NCBI GenBank assembly: GCA_041394905.1
Contig: JAWKHJ010000004.1
Coordinates: 398,952-462,951 of the forward strand
Direction of reading: 5' to 3'
Origin: Bryobacterales bacterium
Lineage (GTDB): Bacteria; Acidobacteriota; Terriglobia; Bryobacterales; UBA6623
Length of the DNA stretch: 64,000 nucleotides
Of the stretch, positions 5,394 to 52,623 are shown one piece after another. The notes beneath the pieces were generated by a model, which ran no database searches, had not been told where the DNA came from, and worked only from the letters and a program-made list of their open reading frames with translations. Position numbers and translations under genes: made by a program. Every line of letters begins with the position of its first letter. Position 1 is the first letter of the stretch.

Positions 5394-6658
5394 GAACGTT
5401 TGAGGTTGAAGGTGCGCCGCACGAACTCGACAAAGCGGCGCCCGTCTGGGTGGCCGACCATCTTCTTCATCTCAGTGATGGGATGGTGCGCCACCTTGTT
5501 CATCATCGCGCGTGTCAGCCCCTCGACCGCCTGCTCTTGCTCTGGCGTCAGCTGGCCGAGCTTATTGCGGAAGCGATGAATCTCAGCGAGCCGCACTTCC
5601 TCGAGGTGCTTGTGCAGAGACTCGATCGTGGGGCCGAGTTGCGCCCCGCGCAGCCGCCGCAACATGCCCTCGACCTCTTCCTCGACGATTTGTTCAGCCT
5701 GCTCCGCCTCGCGGCGGCGCTGCTTCAAGTTCGCCTCGGCGACCTGCTGCAGATCGTCGATGTCGTAGACGAACATCTCGTCGACCGAGTTGATCTCCGG
5801 ATCGATGTCGCGCGGCACCGCAATGTCGACGAAGAAGAGCGGCCTGCCACGGCGGGCGGCGCCAATGCCCTTGGCCGTCTCCTTGGTCAGGATGAAGCCC
5901 GGCGCGCCGGTCGAGCTGATCACGATGTCGACCTTGGTCAACATTTCGAGGAGCCGATCGTAGGGCACCGGCTCGCCGTCGAACTGCCGCGCAAGCTCCT
6001 GTGCGCGCTCAAACGTGCGGTTGGCGACGTAGGTCTTCTCCGCGCCTGCGCCCTTCAAGTGCCGGGCCGTCGCCTCCGACATCTTGCCCGCGCCGATGAT
6101 CAGCACCGACAGCCCGGAGAGCTCGCCAAAAATCTTCCGCGCCAGCTCGACGGCAACGTAGCTGATCGAGACGGCCATCTGCCCGATGCCGGTCTCATTG
6201 CGCACACGCCGTGCGACGCGAAACGCAGCGGTCAACAGCTGGTCGAGCGGCCCGCGGATCGTCCCCGCGCGCTTGGCCGACTGGTAGGCTTCCTTCACCT
6301 GACCGAGGATCTGGGGCTCGCCCACCACCATCGAATCCAGGCTCGAGGCGACGCGAAAGATGTGGCGGACCGCTTCGCGGTCGGCGTAGCGGTACAGGTA
6401 CGGCTCGGCGTGCCGCATTGGGTCGCCATGCGCCTCGCCGAGCAGCGCCAGCAGCTGGGCTTCGGCCCCGTCCTCGAGGTCGGAGCGCACCAGGAACTCG
6501 ACGCGGTTGCAGGTGGAGAGGATGCACGCCTCGTCGATGCCGGGCTGCGCCACCAGCGACTCGAGCAAAACATCCTTGCCCTCGCCGAAGACGGCAAGCC
6601 GTTCCCGCACCTCGACGGGCGCGGTCTTGTGGCTCAACCCTAGGACCAGAACGCTCAT
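5390..6658 (-). CDS. hemA: Glutamyl-tRNA reductase
   Basis: MSVLVLGLSHKTAPVEVRERLA...ILSTCNRVEF...VGEPQILGQVK...VLIIGAGKMSE. I prefer the internal ATG at 6658, which makes an ATGA overlap with the upstream gene stop, over the listed start at 6697. Confidence 0.93.
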   Translation of the reverse strand: MSVLVLGLSHKTAPVEVRERLAVFGEGKDVLLESLVAQPGIDEACILSTCNRVEFLVRSDLEDGAEAQLLALLGEAHGDPMRHAEPYLYRYADREAVRHIFRVASSLDSMVVGEPQILGQVKEAYQSAKRAGTIRGPLDQLLTAAFRVARRVRNETGIGQMAVSISYVAVELARKIFGELSGLSVLIIGAGKMSEATARHLKGAGAEKTYVANRTFERAQELARQFDGEPVPYDRLLEMLTKVDIVISSTGAPGFILTKETAKGIGAARRGRPLFFVDIAVPRDIDPEINSVDEMFVYDIDDLQQVAEANLKQRRREAEQAEQIVEEEVEGMLRRLRGAQLGPTIESLHKHLEEVRLAEIHRFRNKLGQLTPEQEQAVEGLTRAMMNKVAHHPITEMKKMVGHPDGRRFVEFVRRTFNLKRS

Positions 6659-32422: not shown

Positions 32423-32741
32423 CTACCTTCTTGCCGGCACAGTTTCAACATCGACGCCGGCAGGCAAGTCCAGGCGCATCAGCGCGTCGCTGGTGTCCTG
32501 CGTCGGCTCGAGGATGTCGAGAAGCCGCTTGTGCGTGCGAATCTCGAACTGCTCCCGTGAGCGCTTGTCGGTGTGCGGCGAGCGCAGCACCCGTGTACTT
32601 GTTCTTCACCGTCGGCAGCGGAATCGGGCCAGCCACTTGGGCGCCCGTCCGCCGCGCGGTGTCGACGATCTCGCCCGTCGACTGATCGAGAACTCGATAG
32701 TCGTACGCTTTCAGGCGGATCCGGATGCGTTCTTTCGGCAT
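32423..32741 (-). pseudogene. rpsJ: 30S ribosomal protein S10, one extra base in C-run 32590-32592; probably an assembly indel
   Basis: [50 protein letters not shown], then off-frame. Removing one G from minus-sense ACGGGTGCT restores [49 protein letters not shown]... up to TAG 32423-32425. Confidence 0.9.
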
Positions 32742-32748
32742 GGCCTTC

Positions 32749-33936
<1,188 letters not shown>

Positions 33937-33962
33937 CTCGCTCGCTACTCATATCCGTTACT

Positions 33963-36061
33963 TCAGCTTTCAAGCTGGCTCGCCACGCGGCCTGAACCTT
34001 ACTAATCACCTCTTCAGCGACTGGCCGGGGCCTGCTCCATAGCCGTGCGGAATTGCATCGAGTAGCTGCCACGGCCCTGCGTCCGCGAACGCAGATCGGT
34101 CGCATACCCGAACATCTCCGCCAACAGCACGAAACCCTTGACGATCTGTGAGCCGCCGCGCGTCCATACCTTCAATACGGCCGCGGCGCTGGTTCGACAT
34201 CGAAATCACGTCGCCCATACTCTTCCGGAACGACGACCTCGATCGCCATCACCGGTTCCCAGGCAGAACCGCTTTCGCCTTTGAGACGCCATCCTTGAAG
34301 GCCATCGAACCGGCGGCGACCTTGAACGCAACTTCCGAGCTATCCACCTCGTGGAAGCTGCCGTCGTAAAGCTCAGCCTCACGTTGACCGTGGGAAGCCG
34401 GCGATGACGCCGCCTCCGCTGGCCTCGACGATGCCGGCCTCGATCGGCCCGGTGAACTCGCGCGGGATCGTGCCGCCGGTAATCGATTGACGAACTCCGA
34501 ACCCGGAATGATCGCCCGCCTCGACGGCGCAATCCGGATTACATGATAGCTACTGGCCGCGACCGCCCGACTGGCGCACGAAACGGCCCTCGCCGTCTGC
34601 GTTGCGCGGCGTAATCGTCTCGCGGTGACCACACCTGCGACCGACCGACATTCGCCTCGACCTTGAACTCCCTCATCAGGCGGTCAACCAAGATCTCGAG
34701 TGAAGCTCACCCATGCCCGACAGGATCGTCACCCCGTCTCGGCGTCCGTCATCACCCGGAAAGTCGGATCTTCCTGCGCCAGCTTCGCCAGCGCCATGCC
34801 CAGCTTCTGCTGGTCGGCCTTCGTCTTCGGCTCAACCGCGAGCGAAATCACGGGCTCGGGAAAGTCGATACGCTCGAGCACCACCGGCTTGTCTTCGTCG
34901 CAGATCGTGTCGCCGGTCTGAACGGTCTTGAGGCCCACCACAGCGGCGATATCGCCGGCGCGCACCTCTTCGATCTCTTCGCGCTTGTTGGCGTGCATCT
35001 GCAGCAGACGACCAATGCGCTCCTTGCGGCCCTTGGCCACGTTGAACACCGAGTCGCCAGCGTAGCACGCCCAGTGGGGCGCACGAACATAACTGACCAA
35101 TGAACGGGTCCAGTGACAATCTTGAACACCAGCGCCGTGAACGGCTCGTCGTCCGAAGGCCTTCCACCAGTCCTCGCCTGGCCGTCGAGATCCGTACCCT
35201 CGACCGGAGGAACATCGAGCGGCGAAGGCAGGTAGTCGACGACCGCGTCGAGCAGGCGCTGCACGCCCCGCACAACCACTTGAACGCCGAACCCGCGAGC
35301 ACGGGCGTAATCTTCAGCCCGATCGTCGCGCGGCGAAATCGCTCCGCAGCTTCCTCGACCGTCGGCTCGACGCCCTCGACATACTTCTCAAACAGAACGT
35401 CATCCTGCTCGGCGACCTTTTTCGATCAGATCGTGACGCCGCGCCTCAGCCTCGATCTGCAGATCCGCCGGGATGTCCTCGACGTCATAGGTCGCACCTG
35501 TGCCATCGTCGTTCCACAGGATTGCCTTCATCGACGAGATCAACGACGCCACGCAGTTTATCCTCAGCGTGATAGGCATCTGCAAGAGAACCGGATTCGC
35601 CTTCCAGCGATCGACGATCGTCTGCACCGCGTTGTCGAAGTCCGCGCCGATCTTGTCCATCTTGTTAATGAACGCGATGCGCGGAACACGATACTTGTCG
35701 GCTTGGCAGCCAAACGGTCTACGACACGGCTGCACGCCGGCGACAGCGTCGAACAGCGCGATCCGCCGTCAGCACGCGCGGCGGCGCTCCACCTCGGCGG
35801 TAAAGTCGACGTGACCAGTGTCGATGATGTTGATCTGGCAGTCCCGCCACTGGGCATAGGTCGCAGCGGAAGTAATCGTAATGCCGCGCTCCTGCTCCTG
35901 CTCCATGTAGTCCATCGTGGCAGCGCCTTCGTGCACCTCGCCATGCGATGGATACGCCCGGTGTAATAGAGAATGCGCTCGGTCGTAGTCGTCTTGCCCG
36001 CGTCGATGTGCGCGGCAATGCCGATGTTCCGGTACTTCTCGAGATTGACTTTACGAGCCAT
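33963..36061 (-). pseudogene. fusA: Elongation factor G, at least 10 frame changes; 3' end approximate; probably assembly indels
   Basis: Starts [39 protein letters not shown] at 36061. Further pieces are [22 protein letters not shown] (ORF 35400..35735), [24 protein letters not shown] (34848..35279), [35 protein letters not shown]...[35 protein letters not shown] (34729..35100), [29 protein letters not shown] (34249..34632), [21 protein letters not shown] (34006..34218) and the tail ...AEEVISKVQ. Confidence 0.88.
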
Positions 36062-36712: not shown

Positions 36713-37082
36713 CTACTGCTTCAGGCGCTTCGCGCCATACTTCGAACGCCCCTGCCGACGGTCGTTCACGCCGGCGGCATCAGCACGCCGCGCACAACGG
36801 CTGATAACGACACCCGGCAAATCCTTCACACGGCCGCCGCGCCTGCAGCACAATCGAGTGCTCCTGCAGGTTGTGTGCGCAGATGTAGGTCGTACCTCGA
36901 TCTGGTTCGTGAGCCACAGAGCACGCGCAACCTTACGCAGCGCCGGTTCCGGCTTCTTCCAGGTCACCGATAGCACACGCAGGTGCGACACCGCCGCTGC
37001 AGGCACGACCTGAAACCGGGCTCGCCGTCCCAAACTTGGGCGGCTTCCGCCCTTTTCGCACAAGTTGATTGAACGTCGGCAC
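36713..37082 (-). pseudogene. rpsL: 30S ribosomal protein S12, at least 4 frame changes; probably assembly indels
   Basis: GTG start at 37082 gives (M)PTFNQLVRKGRKPPKFGTASP (frame of ORF 36933..37217). The remainder, KKP.PALRKVARALWLTNQIEV...RGGRVKDLPGV...AAGVNDRRQGRSKYGAKRLKQ (ORF 36713..37063), has internal compensating shifts; YICAHNLQEHSIVLQ is readable in another frame. Confidence 0.88.
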
Positions 37083-39031: not shown

Positions 39032-40110
39032 TCAAGCTCTGCCGAATCCATTGCCGCGATCAGCGCCCAACGCCACCCTGACCGCCCGAATCTCGCGCGC
39101 GGAATCCCGCGCAGCCCGCATCTGAGGGTTCTTCAGCGCGCTCGAACCGCAAGCGCCTGCGACCGATCGCGCTCGACGCCTGCGCCGGCCGCGTAGAGCT
39201 CGCCAAGCGGTGTGCGCAGCGTTTCCTGCTCGGCCGCCTACGCAACCACTCGGCAGCCTGCTCTGATCGCGCTCCACACCGCGGCCATCCTCATAGGCTC
39301 TGGCTAGGTCGATCTGGGCCAGCGCGTACCCTTGCTCGGCTGCCGTTCGGCCACTCCAGGGCTTTTCGGGATCCTCGGCCCGCCCTTGCCCATGGCGTAG
39401 ATCTCCGCCAACTCATACTGAGCCGCCAGATTCCCTTGCCGGGCGCCGCGGCGTTGCCACGAACCGCCTTCCCGCGTCGCGCTCGACGCCCTTGCCTTCG
39501 GCGTAGTGCGCCGCCAGAGCCGCCATCGCCAGCCCGTCGCCCTGCGAGGCAGCCCGCAAGCGCCAACGCATCGCTTCCTCCAGGTTTCGGGGCAGGCCCG
39601 CGCCACGCTCGTATAGCGCCGCCAGACGGCATTGAGCGTCGGCATTACCCGCCTGCGCCGCAACTAGGTACCAACGCGCCGCCATCTCCGCGTTCGGATC
39701 CGCTCCTAGGCCTTCTTCGTAGAGCCGCGCCAGGCTGGTTTGCGCGAGGGCGTCGCCCTGGACCGCCGCTGACCGTACCAGTGCAGCTCGCCATAGTCCC
39801 GTGCGACGCCCTCGCCGCTCTCGTACTTCGTCCCCAGCCGATACTGCGCGAAGGCGTTGCCTTGCACAGCCGCCAGCGTGTACCACTTGACTGCCAGTTC
39901 CGGCGAGGCCTCGACCCCGCGGCCGTAGTCGTACATCATGCCCAAGTACGCCTGCGCCAGCGCATCGCCCGATTCTGCGACCCCAGGCAGGTATTCGGCG
40001 CCGCTCACCGTAGTCGCCTGACTCGTAGGCGAGTTGGCCTACGCGCAGGCTCCATGCCTGGCAACCCGCCATCACCAAGCGAAAGCGCGAACGCCGTCAA
40101 TCAGGTGAAA
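39032..40110 (-). pseudogene. Sel1-repeat (SLR/TPR-like) protein, probably a lipoprotein, many frame changes; ends approximate
   Basis: Repeated Sel1 signatures occur in three frames: AQAYLGMMYDYGRGVEASPELAVKWYTLAAVQGNAFAQYRLGTKYESGEGVARDY; AQTSLARLYEEGLGADPNAEMAARWYLVAAQAGNADAQCRLAALYERGAGLPRNLEEAMRWRLRAASQGDGLAMAALAAHYAEGKGVERD; AQYELAEIYAMGKG; AQIDLARAYEDGRGVERDQS. A possible lipobox LVMAGC lies near 40070. Confidence 0.6.
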
Positions 40111-40302
40111 AGCTAGGCCGCACGACTGTATGCAGCCCGAGTCTACGCGGAAGGCCCGCATCGGCTGCGGAACCTACCCGGCCCTTTTCGACCCGTTATT
40201 TCCAGACGTTTCCAGCCGCAACGCCCGGGGGATAGGCCTAGCCTCGCGCCAATTCCCAGGTTCGGCAGCGCGCAAAATTCGGCCTCACCAACTCCGCGAA
40301 AG

Positions 40303-41376
40303 CTAGCTGTGCCGGATCACCAGCACGTCGCCGTCCTGCACGATGTAATCGCGCCCCTCCAGCCGCAGCACGCCCTTCTCCTTGGCGCCTTGGTAGCCGT
40401 TGAGCTCGAGCAGCAGCTCCCACTGGATCGTCTCCGCGCGGATAAACTTTTTCTCGAAATCGGAGTGGATCGCACCGGCCGCCTTCGCCGCCGGCGTGTT
40501 CTTCGGGATCGTCCAGGCGCGGCACTCGGTGTCGCCGGCGGTCAGGAATGACATCAAGCCCAACAGGTCGTACGTCGCCTGCACCATGCGGTTCAGGCCC
40601 GGCTCGGTCAACCCGTAGGTCTCCATGTACTCTTTGGCGTCCTCGTCCGAGAGCTCGGCGATCTCAGCCTCGATCGAGCCGCACACCGCCGTCACGCCCA
40701 CATTGCGCTTGCCTTCCAGCCACTCGGCGCGGTACTTCTCCTCGATCTCGCTGATCTGCGATGCCTGATCCTCGCCCACGTTCAGCACCAGCAGCATCGG
40801 CTTCTCGGAGAGAAACTGAAACCCGCGCAGCCGCTTGGCCTCATCCGGCTCGAGCTCGAGCTCCCGCAGCGGAATCTCCGATTCGAGCGTCTGCTTGCAG
40901 CGCTCGAGCAGTTCCTGCTCCTTGGGCAGGTCCGGGTTCTTCAAGCGCTTGGCGTCCTTGGCCACCCGTTCGAGGCGATTCTCGACCACCTGCAAGTCGG
41001 CCAGGATCAGCTCCGCCTCCATCGCGTCCCAGTCGCGTTTGGGGTCGAGCGTGCCCTCGATGTGCATCACCGTGTCGTCTTCGAACAGGCGCAGCACGTG
41101 TGCGAAAGCGTCCACGGTGCGCAACGAGCCGATGTAGGCCGGGTCCGCAAGCGCCTCGCGCGACAGCGCCGGCATGTCGGCATATTCCACCGTCGCATGC
41201 ACCACCTTGGGCGGCTCGAATAGCTCGGCGAGCTTGTCCAGCCGCTTGTCCGGCACCTTCGCGACGCCCACCTGCGCCTTCATCGAGCCAATCTTTCCCT
41301 CGCTCGAAACGCCGGTCAGGATGGTAAACAGCGACGTCTTGCCGACCTGCGGCAGACCGATGATTGCAGTCCTCAT
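40303..41376 (-). CDS. ychF: Redox-regulated ATPase YchF (Obg-family GTPase/ATPase)
   Basis: Intact 357-aa ORF. Motifs: IIGLPQVGKTSLFTILTG, C-terminal TGS-like part AWTIPKNTPAAKAAGAIHSDFEKKFIRAE...GRDYIVQDGDVL. First intact gene after the frameshift patch. Confidence 0.93.
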   Translation of the reverse strand: MRTAIIGLPQVGKTSLFTILTGVSSEGKIGSMKAQVGVAKVPDKRLDKLAELFEPPKVVHATVEYADMPALSREALADPAYIGSLRTVDAFAHVLRLFEDDTVMHIEGTLDPKRDWDAMEAELILADLQVVENRLERVAKDAKRLKNPDLPKEQELLERCKQTLESEIPLRELELEPDEAKRLRGFQFLSEKPMLLVLNVGEDQASQISEIEEKYRAEWLEGKRNVGVTAVCGSIEAEIAELSDEDAKEYMETYGLTEPGLNRMVQATYDLLGLMSFLTAGDTECRAWTIPKNTPAAKAAGAIHSDFEKKFIRAETIQWELLLELNGYQGAKEKGVLRLEGRDYIVQDGDVLVIRHS

Positions 41377-41472
41377 AACTTCACAGCCGCAGGCGCAGGC
41401 CTGCCGGAATCCACACTAGCTTCAACAGGAATTAGCAGCATACCGCAGGCCGTCCGGCCCGCGGCTCGGCGG

Positions 41473-42438
41473 TTAAACCGGCGGCGGCGTGCTCTCCAAA
41501 ATCTCCGCCAGAATCTGCTCCGCCCTCTCCCCGAAACCCGATTCGCCCCCGAACCGCCGATCCGGGATCACACGATGCCCGAATACCGGCGCCGCCAAGG
41601 TCTTCACATGATGCGGAGTCACGTAGTCCACGCCCTCGAGCAGCGCTAGCGCCTGCGAGGCCCGGTAGAGCGCAATCGAGCCGCGCGGGCTCACGCCTAG
41701 GGCCATCTGCGGATGCTCCCGGGTTCCCTCGACGATGCGCATGATGTAGTCCACGATGTCTTCGTGCACCTTCACCTCGTGCACCAAGCGCTGCAACTCG
41801 ACCACATCGTCGGAATGCATCGACGGCGGCGCCGAGCCCGGCGTCTGCCGCGCCCCGTTCAGCCGCAAAATCTCGCGCTCACTCGCCGGGTCCGGGTAGC
41901 CCATCCGAATCCGTAGTAGAAACCGGTCGAGCTGCGCCTCCGGCAACGGAAACGTCCCGTGATACTCCACCGGATTCTGCGTCGCGATCACCATGAACGG
42001 CTCCGGCAGGGGATACGAGCGGCCTTCGATCGAAATCTGCCCCTCGTTCATCGCCTCGAGCAGCGCGGACTGCGTCTTCGGCGTCGTTCGGTTGATCTCA
42101 TCCGCCAGCAGGATGTTCGAAAACACCGGTCCCGGCTTGAAGTCGAACTCTTCGCGGCTCGCCGAATAGACCGTCACGCCCAGCACGTCCGACGGCAGCA
42201 TGTCGGAGGTGAACTGGATGCGCTGGAAGCGGCAATCCACCGCCCTTGCCAGAGCGTGCGCCAGGGTCGTCTTCCCCACCCCAGGCACGTCTTCGATCAA
42301 CAGGTGACCGCGCGCCAGCAAGCACACCACCGACAGCCGCAAGGCCTCCGCCTTGCCACGGATGACTGTGGCGAGCGAAGCTTCCAACGCGCCGAGTTTC
42401 TCCACCAGCGCGCTCTCGGCAATGCGGCCGGGCGACAT
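41473..42438 (-). CDS. MoxR-family AAA+ ATPase
   Basis: Intact 321-aa ORF. Walker A EDVPGVGKTTLAHALA, Walker B ILLADEINR, QSALLEAMNE.Q, VIATQNP.E..GT.PLPEAQLDRF. Confidence 0.9.
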   Translation of the reverse strand: MSPGRIAESALVEKLGALEASLATVIRGKAEALRLSVVCLLARGHLLIEDVPGVGKTTLAHALARAVDCRFQRIQFTSDMLPSDVLGVTVYSASREEFDFKPGPVFSNILLADEINRTTPKTQSALLEAMNEGQISIEGRSYPLPEPFMVIATQNPVEYHGTFPLPEAQLDRFLLRIRMGYPDPASEREILRLNGARQTPGSAPPSMHSDDVVELQRLVHEVKVHEDIVDYIMRIVEGTREHPQMALGVSPRGSIALYRASQALALLEGVDYVTPHHVKTLAAPVFGHRVIPDRRFGGESGFGERAEQILAEILESTPPPV

Positions 42439-42501
42439 AAGTCTCTATTCTACCCGCCGCCCCCTGGACTGTCCCGCCGTACCCTGTAGACTTTAGACAG
42501 A

Positions 42502-44501
42502 ATGTCGCGCCTGCTCTTGCCTGCTCTGCTGCTTGTCTCCCTGACCCTGCCAGCCGCCACGCCTCCGCCCTCGGTCGACCGCGACGTGGCCGAATGGGCC
42601 ATCCGTCTCGGCGGCGCCGTCGTCGTCGAAGGCGGCCATGAGCGCATCCGCCGGCTCGACCGCCTACCCGCGGACGACTTTCGCGTCGAAGAGCTCAACC
42701 TGGTCGGTTGCAACATCGACCCGCCGGATCTCTACCGCCTCAGCCCGCTGCTCGCTCTCAAACGCATCCATCTGCCGGGCCCCATGTGGAATCCGCGCGC
42801 GGGCGCCAACAAGGACTACAGCGCCGATCTCGGCTATTTCGCCACCCTGCCCAAGCTCGAAGAGCTGACCTTCAGCTACACCTTCCTCGCCACCATCAAG
42901 TTCCACGACGAGGGCCTGGCGATGCTCGCCCCTCCGCCGACTCTCTCAAGCGTCTACGCCTGCGCCGGACCCAGATGAAGGGCCTGACCCTGGCGCTGTA
43001 CCGCAACCTAGAATCGCTCGACCTCATCTTCAGCTCCATCACCGATCCCGCCATGGAGCACATCGGCCGCATGAAGAATCTGCGCGACCTGTGGCTGCGC
43101 GACACCAACATCACCGACGCCGGCATGGTCCATCTCGACGGCCTCACCGAGCTGCGCGAGCTCGACTTGCAAGGCCTGCCCCTCACCGACGCCGGCCTCG
43201 CCCACGTCGCCAACCTCAAAAAACTCACTCGCCTCGAACTGCTCGGCGCCGACATCACCGACTCCGGCGTCGAGGTCCTGCGTGACAAGACCGACCTCGA
43301 AGTCTTGAGCCTCTACCGCTCAAAAATCACAAACGCCGGCCTCGACGTTCTCAAGGGCCTCAAGAAACTCCGCCAGCTCGACCTGCGCTATACCCGCGTC
43401 ACACAAGGCGGCGTCGACGCCCTGCGCCAAGCTTTGCCTGACTGTGAGATCGCTTTCCTCGACACCGCCCCCATGCCCGTCGGGGGCCATGAGGTCACCA
43501 TCTTGAGCGACCGCTCGCCCCAGTCCGTCGCGGGGTGGGTGCGCAGCGTCGGAGGCGAGGCTAAGCTCGACGGCGGAGAAGTCGTCGCCGTCTCGCTCAA
43601 CAACACGCCTGTCACGGACGCCGAGATCGCCAACCTCGCCGGCCTCGCCAAACTGCGCAGCCTCGACCTCGAAAAGACCCAGATCGGCGACCTCGCCCTC
43701 GAACAGCTCACCGGCCTCCCCGCGCTCGAAAGCCTGAACCTGCGCCACACCACCGTCTCCGACGCCGGCCTTGCTTCGATCGGCAAGCTGCGCTCCTTGC
43801 GCTCGCTCGACCTGAGCCACACGCTCGTCGAAGGCCCCGGCTTGAAGGATCTCCAGCCGCTGGGCGGTCTGCGCCAGCTCTCTCTGCTGAACGTGAAGAT
43901 CGGAGACGACGCCCTCGCCGCGCTCGTCGATCTGCCCGCGCTGCGCACGCTCTCGCTCGCCTACACCGACATCACCGACTCCGCCGGCGCCACGCTTGGC
44001 AAAATGAGCGGCCTCACCTCGCTCGACCTCACCGGCACCGACGCCGGCAACGAGTCCATGGCCGGGGTCGGCCAACTCGGCGCTCTCGAATTCCTGGGCT
44101 TGAGCTACACCCGTGTCACAGACGAGGGGCTCGCCAAGCTCTCCGCGCTCGACAAGTTGCAGACGCTGCACTTGGTCCGTACCTGCATCGAGGACGACGG
44201 CATGAGAGCCGTCGCCGCCCTGCCCGCGCTGCGCGACCTCAACCTCGACTACACCGAAGTCTCCGACGAAGGCCTCGCGCTTCTCAGCTCCGAGCAGCCT
44301 CTCGAACGCCTCTCACTCGACAGCGCGCACATCTCCGACGAAAGTCTCGGAACCCTCACGCGCCTGCCGCACCTGAAGATGCTCGACCTCTATCACACAC
44401 TCGTCACAACCGGCGCGAAGGAGAAGCTCGACGTCGCCTTGCCCGAGTGCAAGATCGTCTTCGACGCCGACTCGAGCCGACCCACTCGCCGCCGGAGCTA
44501 A
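42502..44501 (+). CDS. Secreted leucine-rich-repeat (RNI-like LRR) protein; one missing base in C-run 42929-42932
   Basis: Signal peptide MSRLLLPALLLVSLTLPAA in ORF 42502..42978. The body is in ORF 42708..44501, with about 20 units of L..L.L..T.ITDAGL..L..L. Making the C4 run C5 joins ...HDEGLAMLAPSADSLKRLRLRRTQMKGL. Confidence 0.8.
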
Positions 44502-44510
44502 TCCAACGAC

Positions 44511-45602
44511 ATGCGCCTACTCGTCACCCTTCTCGCCTGTGCGCTCACGCTACCCGCCGCCGAGCTCGCCCACACCGACGTCGCCCGCTGGATCGATTCC
44601 GTCTCCGGCACGTATGAGCGCGACGCCCAAGGCCACATCGTCGCCGTCGACTTGTCTTCGTCCTGGATCTCCGACGACGACATGGAGCTCATCGCGCGCC
44701 TAGACCATCTCGAGCGGCTCAACCTGGCCTACACCTGGATCAGCGACCTCGGCATGGACCGCCTCGAGCCGCTGCGCAACGTCCGCGAGATCGACCTGCG
44801 CTACTGCGACTACCTGACCGATGGCGCCGTCATCCCGATGAAGAACTGGTCCAAGCTCGAAGTCTTGAACCTGGAGGGCACCGACGTCACCAGCCGCTCG
44901 TTCGAGCACATCGCCAACCTCGAAAACCTGCGCGTGCTCCACGTGGGCCACAGCCGCGTCGAGGACGAAGGTTTCGAGAACCTCGCCTCGCTCTCCAAGC
45001 TCGAAGAGATCGGCTTCGGCGGCGACAAGATGAGCGGCCGCGCCCTGCCTCTGCTCAAGATGCTGCCTTCGTTGAAGCGCGTCGTCATCGGCGGCCTGCA
45101 ACGCACCGACTCGGGCCTCTGGACCGTCGACCTGACCGATTTCAACCTCGACCGCATCGCCGAGCTTACCCAGCTCACCGACCTCGACTTGCACGACTCG
45201 AAGATCGGCGACCGCGGTCTGGAGCGCCTCGAAGGCTTGCAGCAGCTCGAACGGCTCGACCTGAGCGGAACGGAAATCGGCGCGAGCGGCGCCCCAGCTT
45301 TAGCGAAATTCCAAAACCTCGAATCGCTGCGCCTGTTCGGATGTTCAGAAGCGGGCGACAAAGTCGCCTCCACCGTGCGCAGCTTGGCCAAGCTCCAAAC
45401 GCTCGACCTGGCCAAAACCGCGCTCACGGACAAGGGCCTAGCCCAGCTCGAAGCCCTCCCCGCTCTGCGCAACCTCTACGTCAGCGAAACCCAAGTCACC
45501 CCCGACGGCGTCGCCGCCTTCCGCAAGGCCAATCCCAACGTACACGTCTCCTGGGCGGAACCCGCCTACGCAGTCGAACGCTACAAAAACGTCGCCCCCT
45601 GA
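44511..45602 (+). CDS. Secreted leucine-rich-repeat protein (second, shorter paralogue)
   Basis: Intact 363-aa ORF starting 9 nt after the preceding stop. Signal MRLLVTLLACALTLPAAE and the same LRR unit type (LERLDLSGTEIGASGAPALAKFQNLESLRL...). Confidence 0.8.
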   Translation: MRLLVTLLACALTLPAAELAHTDVARWIDSVSGTYERDAQGHIVAVDLSSSWISDDDMELIARLDHLERLNLAYTWISDLGMDRLEPLRNVREIDLRYCDYLTDGAVIPMKNWSKLEVLNLEGTDVTSRSFEHIANLENLRVLHVGHSRVEDEGFENLASLSKLEEIGFGGDKMSGRALPLLKMLPSLKRVVIGGLQRTDSGLWTVDLTDFNLDRIAELTQLTDLDLHDSKIGDRGLERLEGLQQLERLDLSGTEIGASGAPALAKFQNLESLRLFGCSEAGDKVASTVRSLAKLQTLDLAKTALTDKGLAQLEALPALRNLYVSETQVTPDGVAAFRKANPNVHVSWAEPAYAVERYKNVAP

Positions 45603-45697
45603 AGGACACAACAGGGTGCAAGAATGAAGACAGACCACACAGGCCCAAAGCATTTGGAACCCCCTGGTATTCTGAAGTTGGGATCGAATCTAAGGTC

Positions 45698-45720
45698 CGG
45701 ACAGCAGAATGTCCGTTTTT
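45698..45720 (+). terminator. Candidate rho-independent terminator downstream of the LRR pair
   Basis: CGGACA-GCAGAA-TGTCCG (6-bp stem, 6-nt loop) is followed directly by TTTTT at 45716-45720. It lies 96 nt after the 45602 stop. Confidence 0.4.
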
Positions 45721-45737
45721 GTCGCGATTTGTCCGGG

Positions 45738-47405
45738 CTAGAGGCCTAATTCAAGTTTGATGCTCTCGGCATAGCCGTCGATCGCCGACAAGCTCACCGC
45801 TCCCACGCCCTGGGCAGCAAGCAAATCGCGCACGTCGTCGCCCAACGCATCTTCGGCCACAACCGTCAGGCCGGCGTCAGTCTTGCTGAGCCTGCGGTAT
45901 TGCTCGAGCACGAAGCTCAGCCGCGCCGCCTGGGCATCGGCCGAACGCAAGCCCAGCGCATGCACGAAGCGTTCTTCCTTGGTCGGCCGCAGGTACTGGA
46001 AATCGAACGAAAACGTCAAACCCGAAGCCCCGTAGCGGACCTCGACGTCTCTTTGCATGCCGTGCCCATTACGAAACAGCCCCTGGCGCGCGAACGCCTC
46101 GGTCGCCCGCAAGCGCACCCGCCGCCTCCCGCCGGGCCGCTCGACCGGGTCCGCCGGGCTCTCTTCGAGCGGCTGCGGCGTCGCCAGGTAGCAGCCGACC
46201 AGCCGTTCGATCTCGACCGTCGCGTCGGCCGCGAAGATCGATTGTGTGTTCGACAAATGCAGCGTATTCGCGAGATTTTCGACAAACGAGTCTAAATATC
46301 CGCTGAAATCCTCGCCCAGCAAGCGCCTGTCCTCGAACTCGTCGCGCATCGCCTCGAGCTCAGGGATCGACGCCGCCGGGTTGCAGCGCATCCTGCGAAA
46401 GTCGGGCGTAAACCGCGCATCCACGATGCGTCCGTGATGGTCGTAGAGCAGCACAGCGACGTTGTAGAACTCGCCGCTCACCATGTTCGGCGCATAACGC
46501 AGCAGCCTGAACGAATAGCGCTCCACGTTAACGCGCCCCCCGGATGCCGCCGCCAACCGCCACTCCGGAAACGGGTCGCGCGAGGCGAGCTTGCTCTTGC
46601 GAATCAAATCCGGCGTCTCCTTTCGACGCTCGTACAGCCGCTCGAGCAACGACTCGAGCGCATCCCAATCTTCGTCATACCAATCCGGCGGCACATACTT
46701 GTACGCATCGTCCAACACCGAGGGCGGCATGTTGAGAATGCGCCCTAGCCACGGCTCGAAGTCGTCGAAACCCTTGACGCCCTCATAGACCTCTCGGCGC
46801 GTGTAAAGGCCCTGCTCAGGGTTGTCGGAGAACTCCCAATGGTGCGCGTTGAAGGCGAAGCCGTGGTCGATCATGTTGGCCACGTAGACCAGAGAGCGAG
46901 GTCCGATTTCCGGGTCCTCTTCGATGCGCTCTTGCGAGAGCCAATCCGCCGCCTTCGCCCGAAAGAACACCGCCTGGCGTCCGTCCGCGTTCGAGACCCA
47001 CTTGTCGAAAGCCACCATCCCCAAAAACGACTCGCGGTTGACCACCATGCGCAGCAGAGTTAGCGGCACATAGTCGTAGATCGCCTGCCGCGTTGGATCC
47101 ACCGGATACCGCGATCCAAAATGCCGTCCCGGCCGGCAGGGCCGCAGCTCCTTGCCGTGCTCAGTCACCAGCTCCGGCGAAGCTTCGATCAGCTCTTCGG
47201 GCGCCTCGACGATCTCCCACGCCGGCACGGGAAGCTGCAGGTAATCAAGCAGCACGTAGCAGATCAGCTCGTTCACCAGCACGCGCGTATGCTGCGGGTT
47301 CTCACGGAACTTCACGACGTAGTACTGCCCGTCGTCGGCGAGCAGCATGTGCGAGCTCGACCCGCCCCGCATGCGTTTGATGTGCTGGCGCGCTCGGACG
47401 GACAT
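45738..47405 (-). CDS. Uncharacterised fusion: HipA-like kinase domain (aa 1 to about 290), DUF3037-like domain (from aa about 296), and an unassigned C-terminal module of about 130 aa
   Basis: Intact 555-aa ORF with ATG preceded by GGAGG. N-terminal motifs are GGSSSHMLLADDGQYYVVKFRENPQ, VNELICYVLLDYLQLPVP, FDKWVSNADGRQ and MIDHGFAF. The C-terminal part opens with YSFRLLRYAPNMVSGEFYNVAVLLYD, the pattern I remember as the start of DUF3037. Domain calls are from memory only. Confidence 0.6.
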   Translation of the reverse strand: MSVRARQHIKRMRGGSSSHMLLADDGQYYVVKFRENPQHTRVLVNELICYVLLDYLQLPVPAWEIVEAPEELIEASPELVTEHGKELRPCRPGRHFGSRYPVDPTRQAIYDYVPLTLLRMVVNRESFLGMVAFDKWVSNADGRQAVFFRAKAADWLSQERIEEDPEIGPRSLVYVANMIDHGFAFNAHHWEFSDNPEQGLYTRREVYEGVKGFDDFEPWLGRILNMPPSVLDDAYKYVPPDWYDEDWDALESLLERLYERRKETPDLIRKSKLASRDPFPEWRLAAASGGRVNVERYSFRLLRYAPNMVSGEFYNVAVLLYDHHGRIVDARFTPDFRRMRCNPAASIPELEAMRDEFEDRRLLGEDFSGYLDSFVENLANTLHLSNTQSIFAADATVEIERLVGCYLATPQPLEESPADPVERPGGRRRVRLRATEAFARQGLFRNGHGMQRDVEVRYGASGLTFSFDFQYLRPTKEERFVHALGLRSADAQAARLSFVLEQYRRLSKTDAGLTVVAEDALGDDVRDLLAAQGVGAVSLSAIDGYAESIKLELGL

Positions 47406-47461
47406 TCCGCCTCCGGTGCTTTCAAAGGGCGCTCCCTTTGATAGTCCAGGCGGCCATTATA
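47406..47461 (-). promoter_or_regulatory. Candidate promoter -10 box, structured 5' UTR and SD of the kinase-DUF3037 gene
   Basis: Minus-sense TATAAT lies at 47461-47456, with only a poor -35 (GTTTTC at 17-nt spacing). A hairpin CAAAGGG-AGCG-CCCTTTG lies at 47440-47423. GGAGG at 47414-47410 is 4 nt before the ATG. Confidence 0.4.
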
Positions 47462-47467
47462 CGGGTT

Positions 47468-47508
47468 TTGAGAAGAGAGAAAACAGGCGTTCGGAAATTC
47501 GTTCCGAA
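47468..47508 (-). terminator. Candidate terminator after the MltD-like gene
   Basis: Minus-sense TTCGGAA-CGAAT-TTCCGAA (7-bp stem, 47508-47490) lies 15 nt after the stop at 47523. It is followed after 6 nt by the T-rich TGTTTTCTCTCTTCTC. The stem is AT-rich, so this is weak. Confidence 0.3.
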
Positions 47509-47522
47509 ATGAGAAACAAGTT

Positions 47523-50402
47523 TTAATCGCCTGTTCCAGCGCGTTCGGAATAGCGAATCGTGAGGGTCGCTCCGGCGCGAATCCGGGGCGAGCTGAGGCT
47601 GTTCCAACGCATCAAATCATCGACGCTGACGTTGAAGCGCTTGGCGATCACTTCGAGCGTGTCGCCGGGGCGCACGCGGTAGCTGCTGCCGTTGGCCGGC
47701 GGCCGAGTGAGCAAGCGCTGGCCAACTTGCAGCCGAGTCGAGGCGAGCCCGTTCCAGGCCATGAGGTCGTCAACGCTCACGCCTTGCCGTTGCGCAATCA
47801 GGCCGAGCGTGTCGCCGGACTGAACGCGGTAGCTCGACGAGCTCGATGAAGATCCCCCGGAGGACGAAGGCGTGGCCGGCGCCGGCGCGGCGGAAGCCTG
47901 CGGGCGGCTCGACGGCGGGCGGACGATCAACGTTTCGCCGGCGACGATGCGGCTATTGCGCATCTTGTTCCAGGAGCGCAGGTCGCTCGCGCTCACGCCG
48001 AACCGCTCAGCGATACCGCCGAGAGTGTCGCCCGGCCGAATGCGATATTCCACTTGCGTCGAGCTCGAAGCCGAGGTCGAAACGGAAGCGGAAGCGCGCA
48101 CCGGCGCGGCCGCCTCGGCGCGGGTTTGCGTCTCACCGGCCGTGCTGACGATCAGAGACTGCCCCGGGCGAATCATGTTCGAGCGGAGCCCGTTCCAGCT
48201 CTTGAGGTTGGTGACGCTCGTGCCGAACCGCGAAGCGATGCCGCCCAGGCTGTCGCCCGACCGCACGGTGTAGCGGCGCCCCGTCGACGGCGCCGATTCC
48301 TCTTGTGTTTGCGCGACTTGCTCAGGCTCGGACTGGCTCGCGCCGGCGGGGTTGACGATCAGGTAGTCGCCAGCGGTGATGCGGGTACCGCGGATGCCGT
48401 TCCAAGCGCGCAGATCGCTGACCGAGACGCCGAAGCGTGCGGCGATCTCGCCTAGGTTGTCACCCGAGCGGATGCGGTATTTGCCGCCGGACGGGGCGGG
48501 CGAGGATCCACGCGAGGACGAAGAACTGGAGCTCGAGTGCGTCGAGGTCGAGCCGCCGGGAACCTTCAGGCGATCGCCCACCTGGATACGGGTCGAGCGC
48601 AGGCCGTTCCATGACTGCAGCTGCGAAGTGGTCACTCCGTAGCGTCGGGCGATACCGCCCAAGGTGTCGCCACGGCGGACCTGGTACAGGCCGTCTGGCG
48701 CGGAGCCCGATGAGGAGCCACCGGAGGACGACCCGACTTCGCCCTCGCGATCGGGGTCGACGATCAAGTAGCGGCCGGCTCGGATGCGCGTATTCGGCAA
48801 TCCGTTCCAAGCGCGCAACTGTGAGACGGAGACGCCGAAGCGGCGTGCGATCCCGCCCAGCGTATCGCCGCTGGCGATGCGGTAGCGGCCACCGCCGCCG
48901 ATGGTCGAGCCGCCGGCGCCGCCGCCGTAGCCGCGAAACACCCGCAGCTTCGTCTCGGTCGGAATGTTGATCGACATGCCGGCCGGGACGACTGTCGCGC
49001 CCGCCTCGAGTCCGTTCACCGCGATCAGTTGATCAACGCTGACCTTGTGCTTTTTGGCCAAGTCGGCCAACAGCGCGTCCTCGTCGCTGCTGTGGTGGCG
49101 CCACTGCATGCGCTTGTCTTCAGGCACGCTCTCGAGCTTCGCGAGGAAGTCTTCCGCAGCGCCCCTGGGCAGATGTAGCTCGTACTCGTAGGGCGGCGTC
49201 GCCGAACGCAGCAACGATGAGTTGAGGTCTTCGATCTCGGTCGCGCTCGTGCCGGCGATGTCGGCGATCAGGTCGAGACTGGCCTCCGAAGCGATCGTGA
49301 CCGTATCGTACTGGCGTTCGGGCGCATAGTCGATCGTGCCGACATCGTACATGTCGAGGTTCTTGTCGACATAGGCCATCGCCAGGATGATCGGCACGTA
49401 CTCGCGCGTCTGCCGAGGAAGCAACTGCCTGCGGCACATCTCCCAATAGTCGTGCGTGTTGCCGCGCTCGATGGCGCGCGTCACTCGGCCGGGACCGGCA
49501 TTGTAGGCGGCAAAGGCCAGGTACCAGTCACCGAACTCGATGTAGAGGTCCTTGAGGTGGCGTGCGGCGGCGCGTGTCGCTTTTTCGAAGTCGTAGCGCT
49601 CTTCGAGATAGCGGTCCTGGCGCAGACCGTACTGCTTACCGCGGAAAGACATGAACTGCCACATGCCGGTGGCGCGCGCGTAGCTGCGCGCCTTCGGCCG
49701 GAAGCCCGACTCGGCTTGGGCAAGATAGAACAGCTCTTTGGGTACGTCCTCTTCTTCGAGGATGCGTTCGATCGACTTGCGGTATGCGCCGGAACGACCC
49801 AAGGTGGCTCGCAGCGTTGCGCGCCCACGTCCTTCGGAGAAATGGTTGATCAGGCGCTTGACCTGGTCGTTAAGAGTCAGAGGCAACTGCGACTGCGTCT
49901 TCTGCAGCCGCTCTTCCCGCCACGCCGATGTCGACGTCTCGAGATGGATTCCTGCGTGATCTCGTCGAGCAGCGAACCTTCTTCCTCCTCGATCGCGGGC
50001 AAGTTGGGATCGAGGAACGCGTGCCGCCATCGACTGCTCGAGCGCGTCGTTGTCCAGCTGGCCTGCAAGCGCATGGACAGCTCATGCTCGCGCCGGGGCG
50101 GGAAGGCCGGTGTAACGGCGTTGGCTTGCGCAGCAGGTTGGCCGGAGACCGCGGCCGATCGAGGCGCAGGCGGCGCGGCGACTGGCGCTGTTGCCTGCGC
50201 TGGCGCTGGTAGCCGCGGCGGCCGTGGCCTGCGTCTCGGCGACGCCTCCGCAGCGGCAGCCGCTGCAAGGTTGCTGCGGCCGGGGCGCGGGAGGCTGAAC
50301 GGTTGTTGCGGTCAGGACGACGCCGCCGCATGAAGCCATCAGCGCACAGATCGTGGCCAAGCTCAGGCTGCGACGCGATCTTCCCCGGAAATGTCGGGTC
50401 AT
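47523..50402 (-). CDS. MltD-like lytic murein transglycosylase lipoprotein with SLT domain and 8 LysM repeats; 5' part (49930-50300) has at least 4 frame changes
   Basis: ORF 47523..50030 has an SLT block (AQAESGFRPKARSYARATGMWQFM...AAYNAGPGRV) and then repeated Y.V..GDTLGGIA.RFGVS...L..WNGL....I..G..L modules. The true N-terminus is MTRHFRGRSRRSLSLATICALMASCGG (lipobox) at 50402 in ORF 50082..50585. The intervening Ala/Pro-rich linker is readable only by hopping frames: ...HELSMRLQA / LDNDALEQSMAA / AFLDPNLPAIEEEEGSLLDEITQESI / LETSTSAWREERLQ. Confidence 0.8.
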
Positions 50403-50562
50403 GGACAAAAAAGAACTCGCCAGACGGGAGCGCAGACCGCCCTCGGGCTTAGCGGCGAGGATTACCGCCAATGCTAGCAAACACAGGGCAAGTTCAATTT
50501 GGGACCGCTTCGTCTCGGTCCTGTTTTGGTTCCTCTGATCCCTAAGATAACAAAAAAGCGAC

Positions 50563-52623
50563 TTATTCGTCGTCGGCCTCCTCACCGGAACGCTCTTTGC
50601 GCGCCGCTGCCACCACTTTGTCGGCGATCTGTTGCGGCACGAAGTCGTAGTGGTCGAACTCCATGGCGAACGAGCCGCGGCCTTGGGTCATGGAGGTCAG
50701 CTCATTGGCGTAGGTCAGCATCTCCGACATCGGCACCTCGGCTTTGATGATCTGGTTCTGGCCCTTGGTGTCCATACCCTGGATGCGCCCGCGGCGCTGG
50801 CGAGATCGCCCATCCGAATCCATCGGCGATCTCGACCTTCATTACGGGTTCGAGCAAGGCCGGCTTGGCCTGCTCCATCGCCAAGCGAAAGGCTTTGCGT
50901 CCTGCGAGCTTGAAGGCCAGCTCCGACGAGTCGACATCGTGGTAGCTGCCGTCATAGAGCGTGACCTTGAAGTCGACCACGGTGTCCAGCAAGGTAGCCC
51001 TTGGCGGCTATTTCCTGAATACCTTTTTCGACAGCCGGGATGTAGGTCTTGGGGATTGCGCCGCCGAAGATTTCGTCGGAGAACTCTCGAAGCCGGCAGC
51101 CCCGATCGGTGGATCCATCTTGATCTTGCAATCGCCGAATTGGCCGTGGCCGCCGGTCTGCTTCTTGTGGCGGCCGTGGGCGTCAGCGTGGGTGCGGATG
51201 GTCTCGCGGTAGGGAATCTTCGGGGCCTTGAGCTCAACCTCGCAGTGGTAGCGCTTGGCGAGCTTGCTGACGATCACTTCGATGTGCTGCTGGCCGTTGC
51301 CGGCGAGCGAGGAACTCGCCCGTTTTGCTCGTCGCGATAGAAGTTGAGCGAAGGGTCCTCTTCGAGCACACGATGGATGGCCGCGCTCAGGCGATCCTCG
51401 TCCTGCCGCGTTTTGGGCTCAATGGCGAAGGCGATGGCCGGGCAGGATCTCGGCTTTGGGGAACTCGACCGGCGAATCTTTCGCCCCTAAGCTATCGCCG
51501 GAGAGGGTGTCTTTGAGCTTGGCGACGACGCCGATGTCGCCGGCGTGGAGCTCGTCGACGTGCTGCAGCTCTTTGCCCTGCGCTGAGCTGATGCGGGAAA
51601 ACTTCTCGTGGCCGCCGCGGGTATGGTTCTCGACCGTCTCGTCGTTGTGCAGCACGCCGGAGACCGCTGAAGTAGGTGAGACGGCCGGCGAAAGCGTCGG
51701 CGGAAGTCTTGAAGACGAACAGCGCAAGCGGCCCCGCGTCCGTCGATCTTCATCGGGCTGCCGGCGGTCGCGAGCTCGCCGCGATCAGAGGCGAAGCGCG
51801 TAGACGACGAGGAAATCCATCAACTTGTCGACGCCCATGTTGTGGCTGCAGGCCGGAGGTGCAGAGCACGGGGAAGATCTCGCCCGAGAGAATGCCTTTC
51901 TTGAGCCCGGCGACGAGTTTGTCGATGCGAGAGCTCCATGTTCTTTCGAGGTACTCGTTCAGCAGTTCCTCATCACTCTCAGCCACGGCCTCAGTCAGCG
52001 CCTCGCGCGCGGCGGCGACGGCGTCGGCCATGTCGGCGGGAATGTCGATTGCCTTACCTTTGCCGTCGCCGTCCATCTCATAGGCGTAGGCCTTGTTCTC
52101 AATGAGGTCGACGACACCCTTGAAGTCGCGTTCGGCGTCGATAGGAAGTTGGACAGGGATGGCGCTGCCCCGAGCACGTCCTTCACCTGCTGGACAGTCC
52201 CCTCGAAGTCCGCGCGTTCGCGGGCCATCTTGTTGACGACGACGATGCGCGGGATGCCATAGCCTTCCGCGTAGGACCAAACCTTCTCGGTCTGGACTTC
52301 GACTCCGGCGACGGCGTCGACGGTGACGAGGGCGCAGTCGGCGAGCAGCGACGCCTTCGCTTCGTTGATGAAGATGTTGTAGCCGGGGGTGTCGAGGAGG
52401 TTGAGCTTGGTCTTGTTCCGCTCGACGTGGGCCAGGGCGGTGGAGATGGAGACCTTGCGGTCGATCTCCTCGTCGTCGAAGTCGGTGACGGTGTTGCCGT
52501 CGTCGACGCGCGTTAACGGTGACTCCGGCTGTGTACAACATCGCGGCGACGAGCGTGGTCTTGCCGTGGTCGCCGTGTCCGACGACCGATGTTGCGAATG
52601 TCCTTTCCTCCGTAAACCGTCAT
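50563..52623 (-). pseudogene. EF-G-family translational GTPase paralogue (EF-G2-like), more than 10 frame changes; probably assembly indels
   Basis: Starts MTVYGGKDIRNIG, then after a shift VGHGDHGKTTLVAAMLYTAGV. Later pieces are LNLLDTPGY / IPRIVVVNKM (inferred), DRERADFEGTVQQVKDVLG, PVQLPIDAERDFKGVVDLIENKAYAYE, KKGILSGEIFPVLCTSGL, ISSAQGKELQHVDELHAGDIGVVAKLKDT, VSKLAKRYHCEVELKAPKIPYRETI...[64 protein letters not shown] and [54 protein letters not shown]. Confidence 0.8.

Follow-up and report, generated by a model that had tools for sequence, protein, structure and literature searches.

The window analysed here is a 64,000-nucleotide stretch of the genome of a Bryobacterales bacterium (NCBI GenBank assembly GCA_041394905.1, contig JAWKHJ010000004.1, positions 398,952 to 462,951), and the element in question is an uninterrupted open reading frame (ORF) of 555 aa with an ATG start. 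An earlier note on this DNA had singled it out as a fusion of a HipA-like kinase, a DUF3037-like domain and an unassigned C-terminal module, and as the best candidate in the window for an undescribed system. The intact ORF is borne out, on the minus strand, together with all the motifs quoted for it (GGSSSHMLLADDGQYYVVKFRENPQ, FDKWVSNADGRQ, MIDHGFAF, YSFRLLRYAPNMVSGEFYNVAVLLYD and the C-terminal RVRLRATEAF...FSFDFQY). Its continuity hinges on the length of one homopolymer, a run of six G residues (G6) at the boundary between the kinase half and the half that follows it, here called the partner. Coordinates of all features are those of the window and are collected in Table 1.

The two halves of the ORF

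The N-terminal half (aa 1-292) is a HipA_2-family kinase rather than HipA proper. The Pfam family HipA_2 (PF20613) matches aa 10-141 at E 7.7e-12, above its gathering score, and the structural model of this half, for which 41 homologues were used, is confident (pLDDT, the predicted local distance difference test, 93.8; pTM, the predicted template modelling score, 0.91). The neighbours of the model in the PDB are protein-kinase-like and include HipA itself (PI4KII-alpha, Fam20C, HipA, CtkA and HipT; E 1e-5 to 1e-2, TM score 0.4-0.5), so that profile and structure both agree with the HipA_2-type kinase proposed in the earlier note. The likeness to HipA is at the level of the fold only: solved HipA structures gave no significant sequence match (E 0.65), the HipA_C family PF07804 was not matched (E 0.086, 12.9 bits against a cut-off of 30.5), and it is on these two grounds that we separate the kinase from HipA proper. 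More generally, sequence searches of solved structures returned nothing significant for either the full protein or the kinase profile. All the family-invariant residues are present in the kinase, namely G14, G15, K32, D134, N139 (in FDKWxxN) and D180 (in IDHG); judging from the motif pattern, G14 and G15 would form the glycine loop, K32 would be the ATP lysine, D134 and N139 would belong to the catalytic loop, and D180 would be the metal-binding Asp. An alignment in MAFFT of the full query with standalone halves put kinases on the wrong half (14-19% identity), and the two halves were modelled separately.

The middle of the ORF is DUF3037, as the earlier note had suggested, with Pfam PF11236 matching aa 300-404 of the 555 at E 2e-7, above the gathering score. 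Read as a separate protein of 262 aa, the partner is modelled with a pLDDT of 89.4 and shows two domains with a disordered linker between them, the DUF3037 domain (residues 1-114) and a C-terminal domain (residues 134-259) with the topology alpha-beta-beta-beta-alpha-beta-alpha-beta-alpha. Foldseek searches with the latter found the PD-(D/E)xK nuclease domains of Can2/Card1/Cdn1 as the best matches, followed by VC1899 and NucS/EndoMS (E 1e-4 to 1e-3, probability 1.0), and model and matches together place the restriction-endonuclease-like alpha-beta-beta-beta-alpha-beta core fold in this domain. By sequence, DUF1829 is weak, being sub-threshold at aa 459-519 of the ORF, reaching E 0.03 in the partner and giving a signal in 6 of 39 partner homologues at E <= 0.1 (best 2.9e-4). 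We refer to the domain as DUF1829-like because the PD-(D/E)xK fold agrees with this weak signal. Two further matches, to the NCBIfam model HxsD_rel (E 0.007, far under the cut-off) and to PDC-M24B, were disregarded as being either noise or a remote DUF1829-like similarity.

The C-terminal domain does not conserve the canonical D...(D/E)xK triad. Of the triad only D175 (in FDF) is invariant among the homologues, where Y178 and R134 are invariant as well, and the following strand, FVHALG, is without a conserved acidic-x-Lys. Because of this a binding role is likelier than a catalytic one, and the domain is probably a non-catalytic binding domain; the C-terminus of DUF3037 partners is a restriction-endonuclease fold that lacks the catalytic triad. 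Nor is it an extra, unassigned module, as it had first appeared. The 53 partner homologues are all standalone proteins of 179-277 aa, nearly all of them 254-277 aa, and since they cover about 95-98% of the partner half, the C-terminal domain must be counted as a regular part of DUF3037 partners.

The junction and the related loci

The sequence at the junction is GCG GCA TCC GGG GGG CGC GTT AAC GTG GAG CGC TAT, which is translated as AASGG-RVN-V-ERY. The G6 in its middle is the sole G/C run of at least 5 in the ORF. With one added G, the kinase would end ...AASGGAR-TAA, and one base later GTG-GAG-CGC-TAT would begin a second protein, M-ERYSF. Two genes are what is found in the closest sister genome, the NCBI metagenome-assembled genome (MAG) GCA_020439785.1 (L088), which reads GGCATCC-G7-CGCGTTAACGTG where the window has G6. 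This one G is the only indel between the two across the whole kinase-partner region; the kinase is 95% identical to the 292-aa L088 kinase, without a frameshift, and the partner is 93% identical to the L088 partner (P0269). The two genomes are fully syntenic over window positions 39225-51731 (an EF-G paralogue, an SLT-LysM gene, kinase, partner, two convergent leucine-rich repeat (LRR) genes, MoxR and YchF) at a DNA identity of 87-91%. In the public annotation of L088 the partner starts at TTG 5288 (254 aa), which cuts off the conserved N-terminal ERYSFRLL motif; the likelier start is GTG 5264, which follows the kinase stop at a distance of one base.

Two other relatives have the same organization. 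In L002, with a kinase 77% identical to that of the window, the kinase ends ...AASKGAR* and an ATG follows directly, while in L089 it ends ...AASGGKR* and is followed by GTG. In these loci the second gene starts 8-9 nt downstream of the G-run, which puts the run at an SD-like (Shine-Dalgarno-like) position and would be consistent with translational coupling of the two genes. The position of the run, exactly at the gene boundary, and the occurrence of both G6 and G7 in close genomes could also be taken as the marks of a regulated or phase-variable switch, in which slippage on the G-run, at the level of DNA, transcription or translation, would make the locus alternate between two separate products and a fused one. 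We consider this very improbable, as a run of 6-7 G is short for slippage switching, L002 has two genes with a run of only G5, and nothing else points to frameshifting signals.

Beyond these close relatives, two ORFs were found at all 29 of the species-representative genome loci that have both halves (from Bryobacterales and other Terriglobia/Acidobacteriota MAGs) and at all 19 such metagenome loci, with a gap between the ORFs of roughly 0-270 nt in these 48 loci. The statement in the earlier note that HipA-like and DUF3037 proteins frequently occur as adjacent, separate genes was thus well founded, and the survey of adjacent against fused pairs that the earlier note had proposed comes out as 48 of 48 adjacent and none fused. 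Protein searches gave the same picture. No fused protein was seen among the best 120 homologues of the full protein in a word-indexed search, which are at most 400 aa long and cover at most 55% of it, or among the 53 word-indexed homologues of the partner, or in the best 150 of 2605 HMMER hits from 1.84 billion representatives, which are all <=480 aa and match one half each; any fused relative with some 35% identity in each half would have scored above these best 150 of 2605. Fusion in independent lineages therefore stands at 0 of 48 loci, and the other instance of it is confined to the same species (GCA_041394825.1).

In one relative (L053, 3001-4195; Ga0315336_1000600) the module appears to have decayed: kinase aa 1-234 and partner aa 90-261 have been brought together, in different frames, by an internal deletion.

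The single chain had been offered as Rosetta-stone evidence that its two parts act together. It cannot serve as such: it differs from the two-gene state by one base, it does not recur, and the partnership that it supposedly revealed has already been shown experimentally (HipAD/DS-6, PDC-M66), which leaves the fusion with little biological weight. The nearest one can come to that idea is a selected single chain in which the DUF3037-DUF1829 part autoinhibits the kinase in cis until a phage cue arrives. Such a chain could draw on the intact ORF, on the retention of all family-invariant residues in both halves, on a conserved promoter-like element of its own, and on the precedent of fused defence proteins of the CapRel-SJ46 type. 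We nevertheless regard it as improbable. The linker in the fused reading consists of three residues, RVN, which come from the old stop region read out of frame, with the TAA and the GTG still in place; the fused state is restricted to one species, with no fused relatives among the matches listed in two very large protein searches; and the two genes are separate in a sister species whose DNA is about 90% identical. The minimal linker, the restriction to one species and the two-gene sister species together mean that there is no sign of age or of selection. Under any reading, the fusion is not an evolved, recurrent architecture, and is at best a frameshift allele of one species.

Table 1. Features of the kinase-partner locus, in window coordinates
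Feature	Position	Strand	Remarks
555-aa ORF as assembled: kinase, DUF3037 and DUF1829-like in one frame	45738..47405	minus	
HipA_2-type kinase gene, restored two-gene reading	46528..47405	minus	ends ...AASGGAR-TAA if G7
Partner (antitoxin-like) gene, two-gene reading; GTG at 46524-46526, 262 aa, DUF3037 + DUF1829-like	45738..46526	minus	
DUF3037 domain, partner residues 7-111	46194..46508	minus	Pfam E 4.5e-8; 39/39 homologues
C-terminal domain, partner residues 134-259, DUF1829-like PD-(D/E)xK fold	45750..46127	minus	
G6 homopolymer at the junction, encodes Gly-Gly	46536..46541	minus	G7 in L088 and L089; 9 nt before the partner GTG, an SD-like position
Latent kinase stop TAA	46528..46530	minus	out of frame as assembled; in frame with G7
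TATAAT, -10-like box within CCGTATAATG..CGCCTG	47456..47461	minus	conserved: window, L088, L002
8-bp palindrome/hairpin TCAAAGGG-AGCG-CCCTTTGA, between -10 box and Shine-Dalgarno	47422..47441	minus	
GGAGG Shine-Dalgarno, 4 nt before ATG	47410..47414	minus	
Terminator-like hairpin 3' of the upstream SLT-LysM gene	47490..47508	minus	

Indel quality of the assemblies and the status of the fusion

Whether the missing G should be believed depends on the quality of the sequence around it, and the genes of the translation apparatus in the window are instructive in this respect. The tuf gene (32720-33960, minus strand) aligns with E. coli EF-Tu over 387 codons at 71% identity, a normal value, but needs 10 frameshifts to do so in a frameshift-aware alignment, and conserved EF-Tu peptides are spread over all three frames. 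Similarly, fusA (EF-G; 34050-36031, minus) is divided over at least five frame segments, and rpsL (36719-36979, minus) is matched from residue 36 only. Closer to the locus, the EF-G paralogue (50566-52586, minus) runs through frames -3/-1/-3/-2 with indels of 1, 2, 5 and 10 nt relative to L088, and is intact in both L088 and L001, and the 5' end of the adjacent upstream SLT-LysM gene (49900-50340, minus) alternates between two frames where L088 has a single 952-aa ORF. On the plus strand, a 1-nt deletion at 42929 in an LRR gene (42502-44501), from GCACCCTCC to GC-CCCTCC, splits the orthologue of the 666-aa LRR protein of L088. Because such pseudogenes are not possible for essential genes of translation, the window carries uncorrected indel errors, and a one-base difference in a homopolymer is therefore not to be taken at face value. 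A heuristic that looks for phase switches in the G+C content of third codon positions missed the known break at 42930 and was replaced by the homology-based frameshift checks given here.

The stretch of the window from 34 to 40 kb has no long ORFs, and no Rfam family or tRNA was found that accounts for it. In the SLT-LysM gene, the main ORF of 835 aa is without the lipoprotein-like signal sequence (…LATICALMASCGG), which is found in an ORF of its own (50082..50585).

A second assembly of the same species, GCA_041394825.1, provides a further comparison. Its contig JAWKHK010000055.1 (11.6 kb; L091) matches 9.3 kb of the window at 99.06% identity and differs from it inside the gene by two synonymous changes. 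After YchF it carries an insertion sequence (DDE_Tnp_1 transposase, 492 aa); the window has different sequence there. Of its indels, 24 in number relative to the window, almost all are inside the LRR gene: the segment at L091 5290-6671, aligned to window 42951-44345, holds about 23 small ones along with most of the mismatches, and the LRR gene is shredded into tiny ORFs in L091. The deletion at 42929 is present in this assembly too.

The interpretation that we prefer, with a probability of about 0.7, is that the one-ORF state is a homopolymer miscall in the assembly and not a biological fusion. At any one site a homopolymer miscall is a far more frequent event than a fixed frameshift; indel noise is seen in both assemblies, and the earlier stop and start codons are unaltered. 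Several observations weigh against this interpretation and should be stated together. L091 encodes the identical 555-aa fused protein with the same G6, and the two assemblies have every small indel in common except in the repeat-rich LRR gene. The kinase-partner region is otherwise clean of indels. Finally, the dense errors of the window cluster in conserved or repetitive genes and mostly off homopolymers, so that they are no direct sign that the homopolymer at the junction is wrong. A census of homopolymer lengths could not settle the matter, since the shared region contains no long G/C run other than that at the junction; the 3 and 16 runs comparable with L088 and L091, respectively, are too few for any power to test undercalling.

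The shared G6 is compatible with the same systematic undercall of G7 in two error-prone assemblies, and also with a real, species-specific 1-bp deletion. If the latter took place, it would be a recent change from G7 to G6 that produced a neutral or mildly degenerative fused allele of an ordinary two-gene module. The mutation would have been tolerated because the tethered antitoxin, and perhaps also translation from the retained GTG that follows the SD-like G-run, would keep the kinase harmless, and the defence function may have been weakened or lost. That two non-identical assemblies, with two synonymous differences in the gene, agree on G6 speaks for such a deletion, as does the state of the rest of the gene, which is intact and 93-95% identical to that of the sister species with no other indel. 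The presence of the LRR deletion at 42929 in both assemblies suggests that lineage-specific changes do occur here, and the apparently decayed copy described above indicates that such modules erode. Against these points, a G7 run is a classic site of systematic miscalls, the dense indel noise in both assemblies (in tuf and other genes of the window, and in the LRR gene of L091) makes a shared systematic error plausible, and the stop codon was lost in no other lineage among the 48 loci. On balance we regard a real deletion as unlikely, though it is the alternative to be taken most seriously. The earlier note had itself named two genes joined by an assembly indel as the outcome that would undo its fusion; this is probably what happened, with the G6 of the second assembly as the observation that pulls the other way.

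If the G6 were real and functional, the HipAD antitoxin would act within one polypeptide, and the protein would be a ready-made tethered complex for structural work. Taken as a miscall, the locus is a worked example of how one homopolymer base at a tight gene boundary (TAA-C-GTG) creates a convincing Rosetta-stone fusion, and the fused 555-aa protein is already deposited in a public MAG.

Expression signals, context and relation to known systems

The earlier note had listed a TATAAT box, a hairpin in the 5' untranslated region (UTR), a GGAGG Shine-Dalgarno and a hairpin after the upstream gene, and had argued for an independent transcription unit. All four elements were located on the minus strand (Table 1). 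The TATAAT is retained also in more distant relatives (L005-L007 and L009-L011), and because a promoter-like element is conserved in this manner, an independent transcription unit for the kinase-partner locus is credible, even though a simple sigma-70 scan found no full -35/-10 promoter upstream of the ORF. After CCGTATAATG..CGCCTG a hairpin occurs at the same position with a differing sequence, 8 bp in the window (TCAAAGGG/CCCTTTGA), 7 bp in L088 (GAGGGAG/CTCCCTC, ~4310-4383) and 6 bp in L002 (CGGCCC/GGGCCG, ~5930-6000). This element, fixed in position and variable in sequence, could be a 5'-UTR structure or a co-evolving operator; the fold of the 5' UTR in the window is not unusually stable (z = -0.67). 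At L007 there is a perfect 13-bp inverted repeat, AGGAGTCTGTCCC ... GGGACAGACTCCT, with a 10-nt loop (~5913-5948), about 88 nt upstream of the kinase start.

Only about 6 of 30 loci have the SLT-LysM gene as a neighbour, and in L002, with the closest kinase relative, the location is a different one. Vertical inheritance at a fixed locus was rejected on the first of these grounds, and both indicate that the kinase-partner pair moves between chromosomal contexts, as defence modules do. The module, which is of a defence type, is widespread in Bryobacterales, in variable chromosomal contexts.

The pair is already known. HipA-like kinases are strongly associated with DUF3037, and the pair corresponds to PDC-M66 of PADLOC (PMC12548924). 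In the Sda1 operon, deletion of the kinase abolishes phage defence and deletion of the DUF3037 gene is toxic, independently of the retron (PMC12548924). DS-6 is a validated anti-phage system, since renamed HipAD, that consists of a HipA-family kinase and a DUF3037+DUF1829 protein (PMC13092281; DefensePredictor, Science 2026); HipAD is credited also to Brenes & Laub, Cell Host Microbe 2025 (per PMC13092281). A catalytic mutant of the DS-6 kinase loses defence, and AlphaFold3 predicts A-B and B-DNA contacts (PMC13092281). The system put forward as undescribed therefore has a PADLOC entry and experimental validation, and the guess that it was toxin-antitoxin-like or anti-phage was a good one, the kinase being the toxin and the DUF3037 protein its neutralizing partner in the tested systems. 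From its sequence, the locus is a chromosomal and divergent member, in the Acidobacteriota, of the two-gene HipA_2-kinase / DUF3037-DUF1829 module.

By homology to the tested systems, the most likely mechanism is one in which the kinase of about 292 aa is a growth-arresting toxin that would phosphorylate an essential target, its catalysis being needed for phage defence, and in which the DUF3037-DUF1829 protein would bind and neutralize it. Phage infection would then relieve the inhibition and release the kinase, resulting in a defence of the abortive-infection type. More speculatively, the partner might also bind DNA through its endonuclease-fold domain, perhaps at the palindrome between the -10 box and the Shine-Dalgarno.

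The toxin and antitoxin roles and the defence function would carry over to the window locus by the same homology, and some results count against carrying it too far. The PADLOC models PDC-M66A and PDC-M66B (PDLC04766, PDLC04767) match the two halves, PDC-M66A at E 3e-7, as well as 41 of 42 kinase homologues (A) and 39 of 39 partner homologues (B), in the same gene order. The matches are partial, covering kinase aa 26-143 (model positions 42-151 of 270) and the first 46 residues of the partner (model positions 1-46 of 281), and because of this the locus is only presumptively equivalent in function to the E. coli and Sda1 systems that have been tested. A tblastn search with the partner of phage and plasmid collections found no relatives. 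A further difference from PDC-M66 is that PADLOC would expect two genes.

The pair beside Retron-Sda1, in which the kinase toxin is neutralized by the DUF3037 protein, shares the partnership of the two domains with the window locus, and differs in belonging to another host phylum (PMC12548924). As for signs of a retron at the window locus, there is no Rfam match in the window, and no reverse transcriptase gene was apparent in the neighbourhood, although no scan for one was made there. The classical HipBA and HipBST systems have in common with it a toxin of protein-kinase-like fold, as seen from the structural neighbours HipA, HipT and CtkA, and the logic of a neutralizing partner. They differ in that the window locus is without HipS and without a HipB-type helix-turn-helix antitoxin, the position upstream being taken by the SLT-LysM gene and the partner, with DUF3037 and DUF1829, lying downstream; moreover, HipA has about 440 aa and the window kinase about 290 aa, in a Pfam family of its own, HipA_2. 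Fused toxin-antitoxin defence proteins exist in principle, CapRel-SJ46 being an example, and only if the fusion were real would the window share with it a toxin and an antitoxin in one chain. The toxin of CapRel-SJ46 is a toxSAS pyrophosphokinase, not of the protein-kinase-like fold, and its fusion is conserved across its relatives, whereas that of the window rests on a single base in one species.

The closest likeness is to DS-6/HipAD of E. coli. The window locus is distant from it, acidobacterial, and with partial overlap of the hidden Markov models; it lies on the chromosome beside an SLT-LysM gene and not on a prophage, and its two ORFs are merged in the assembly. What the two share is the order of a HipA-family kinase followed by a DUF3037+DUF1829 protein, the absence of HipB, the conserved catalytic residues of the kinase, and a partner that is predicted to bind the kinase and perhaps DNA.

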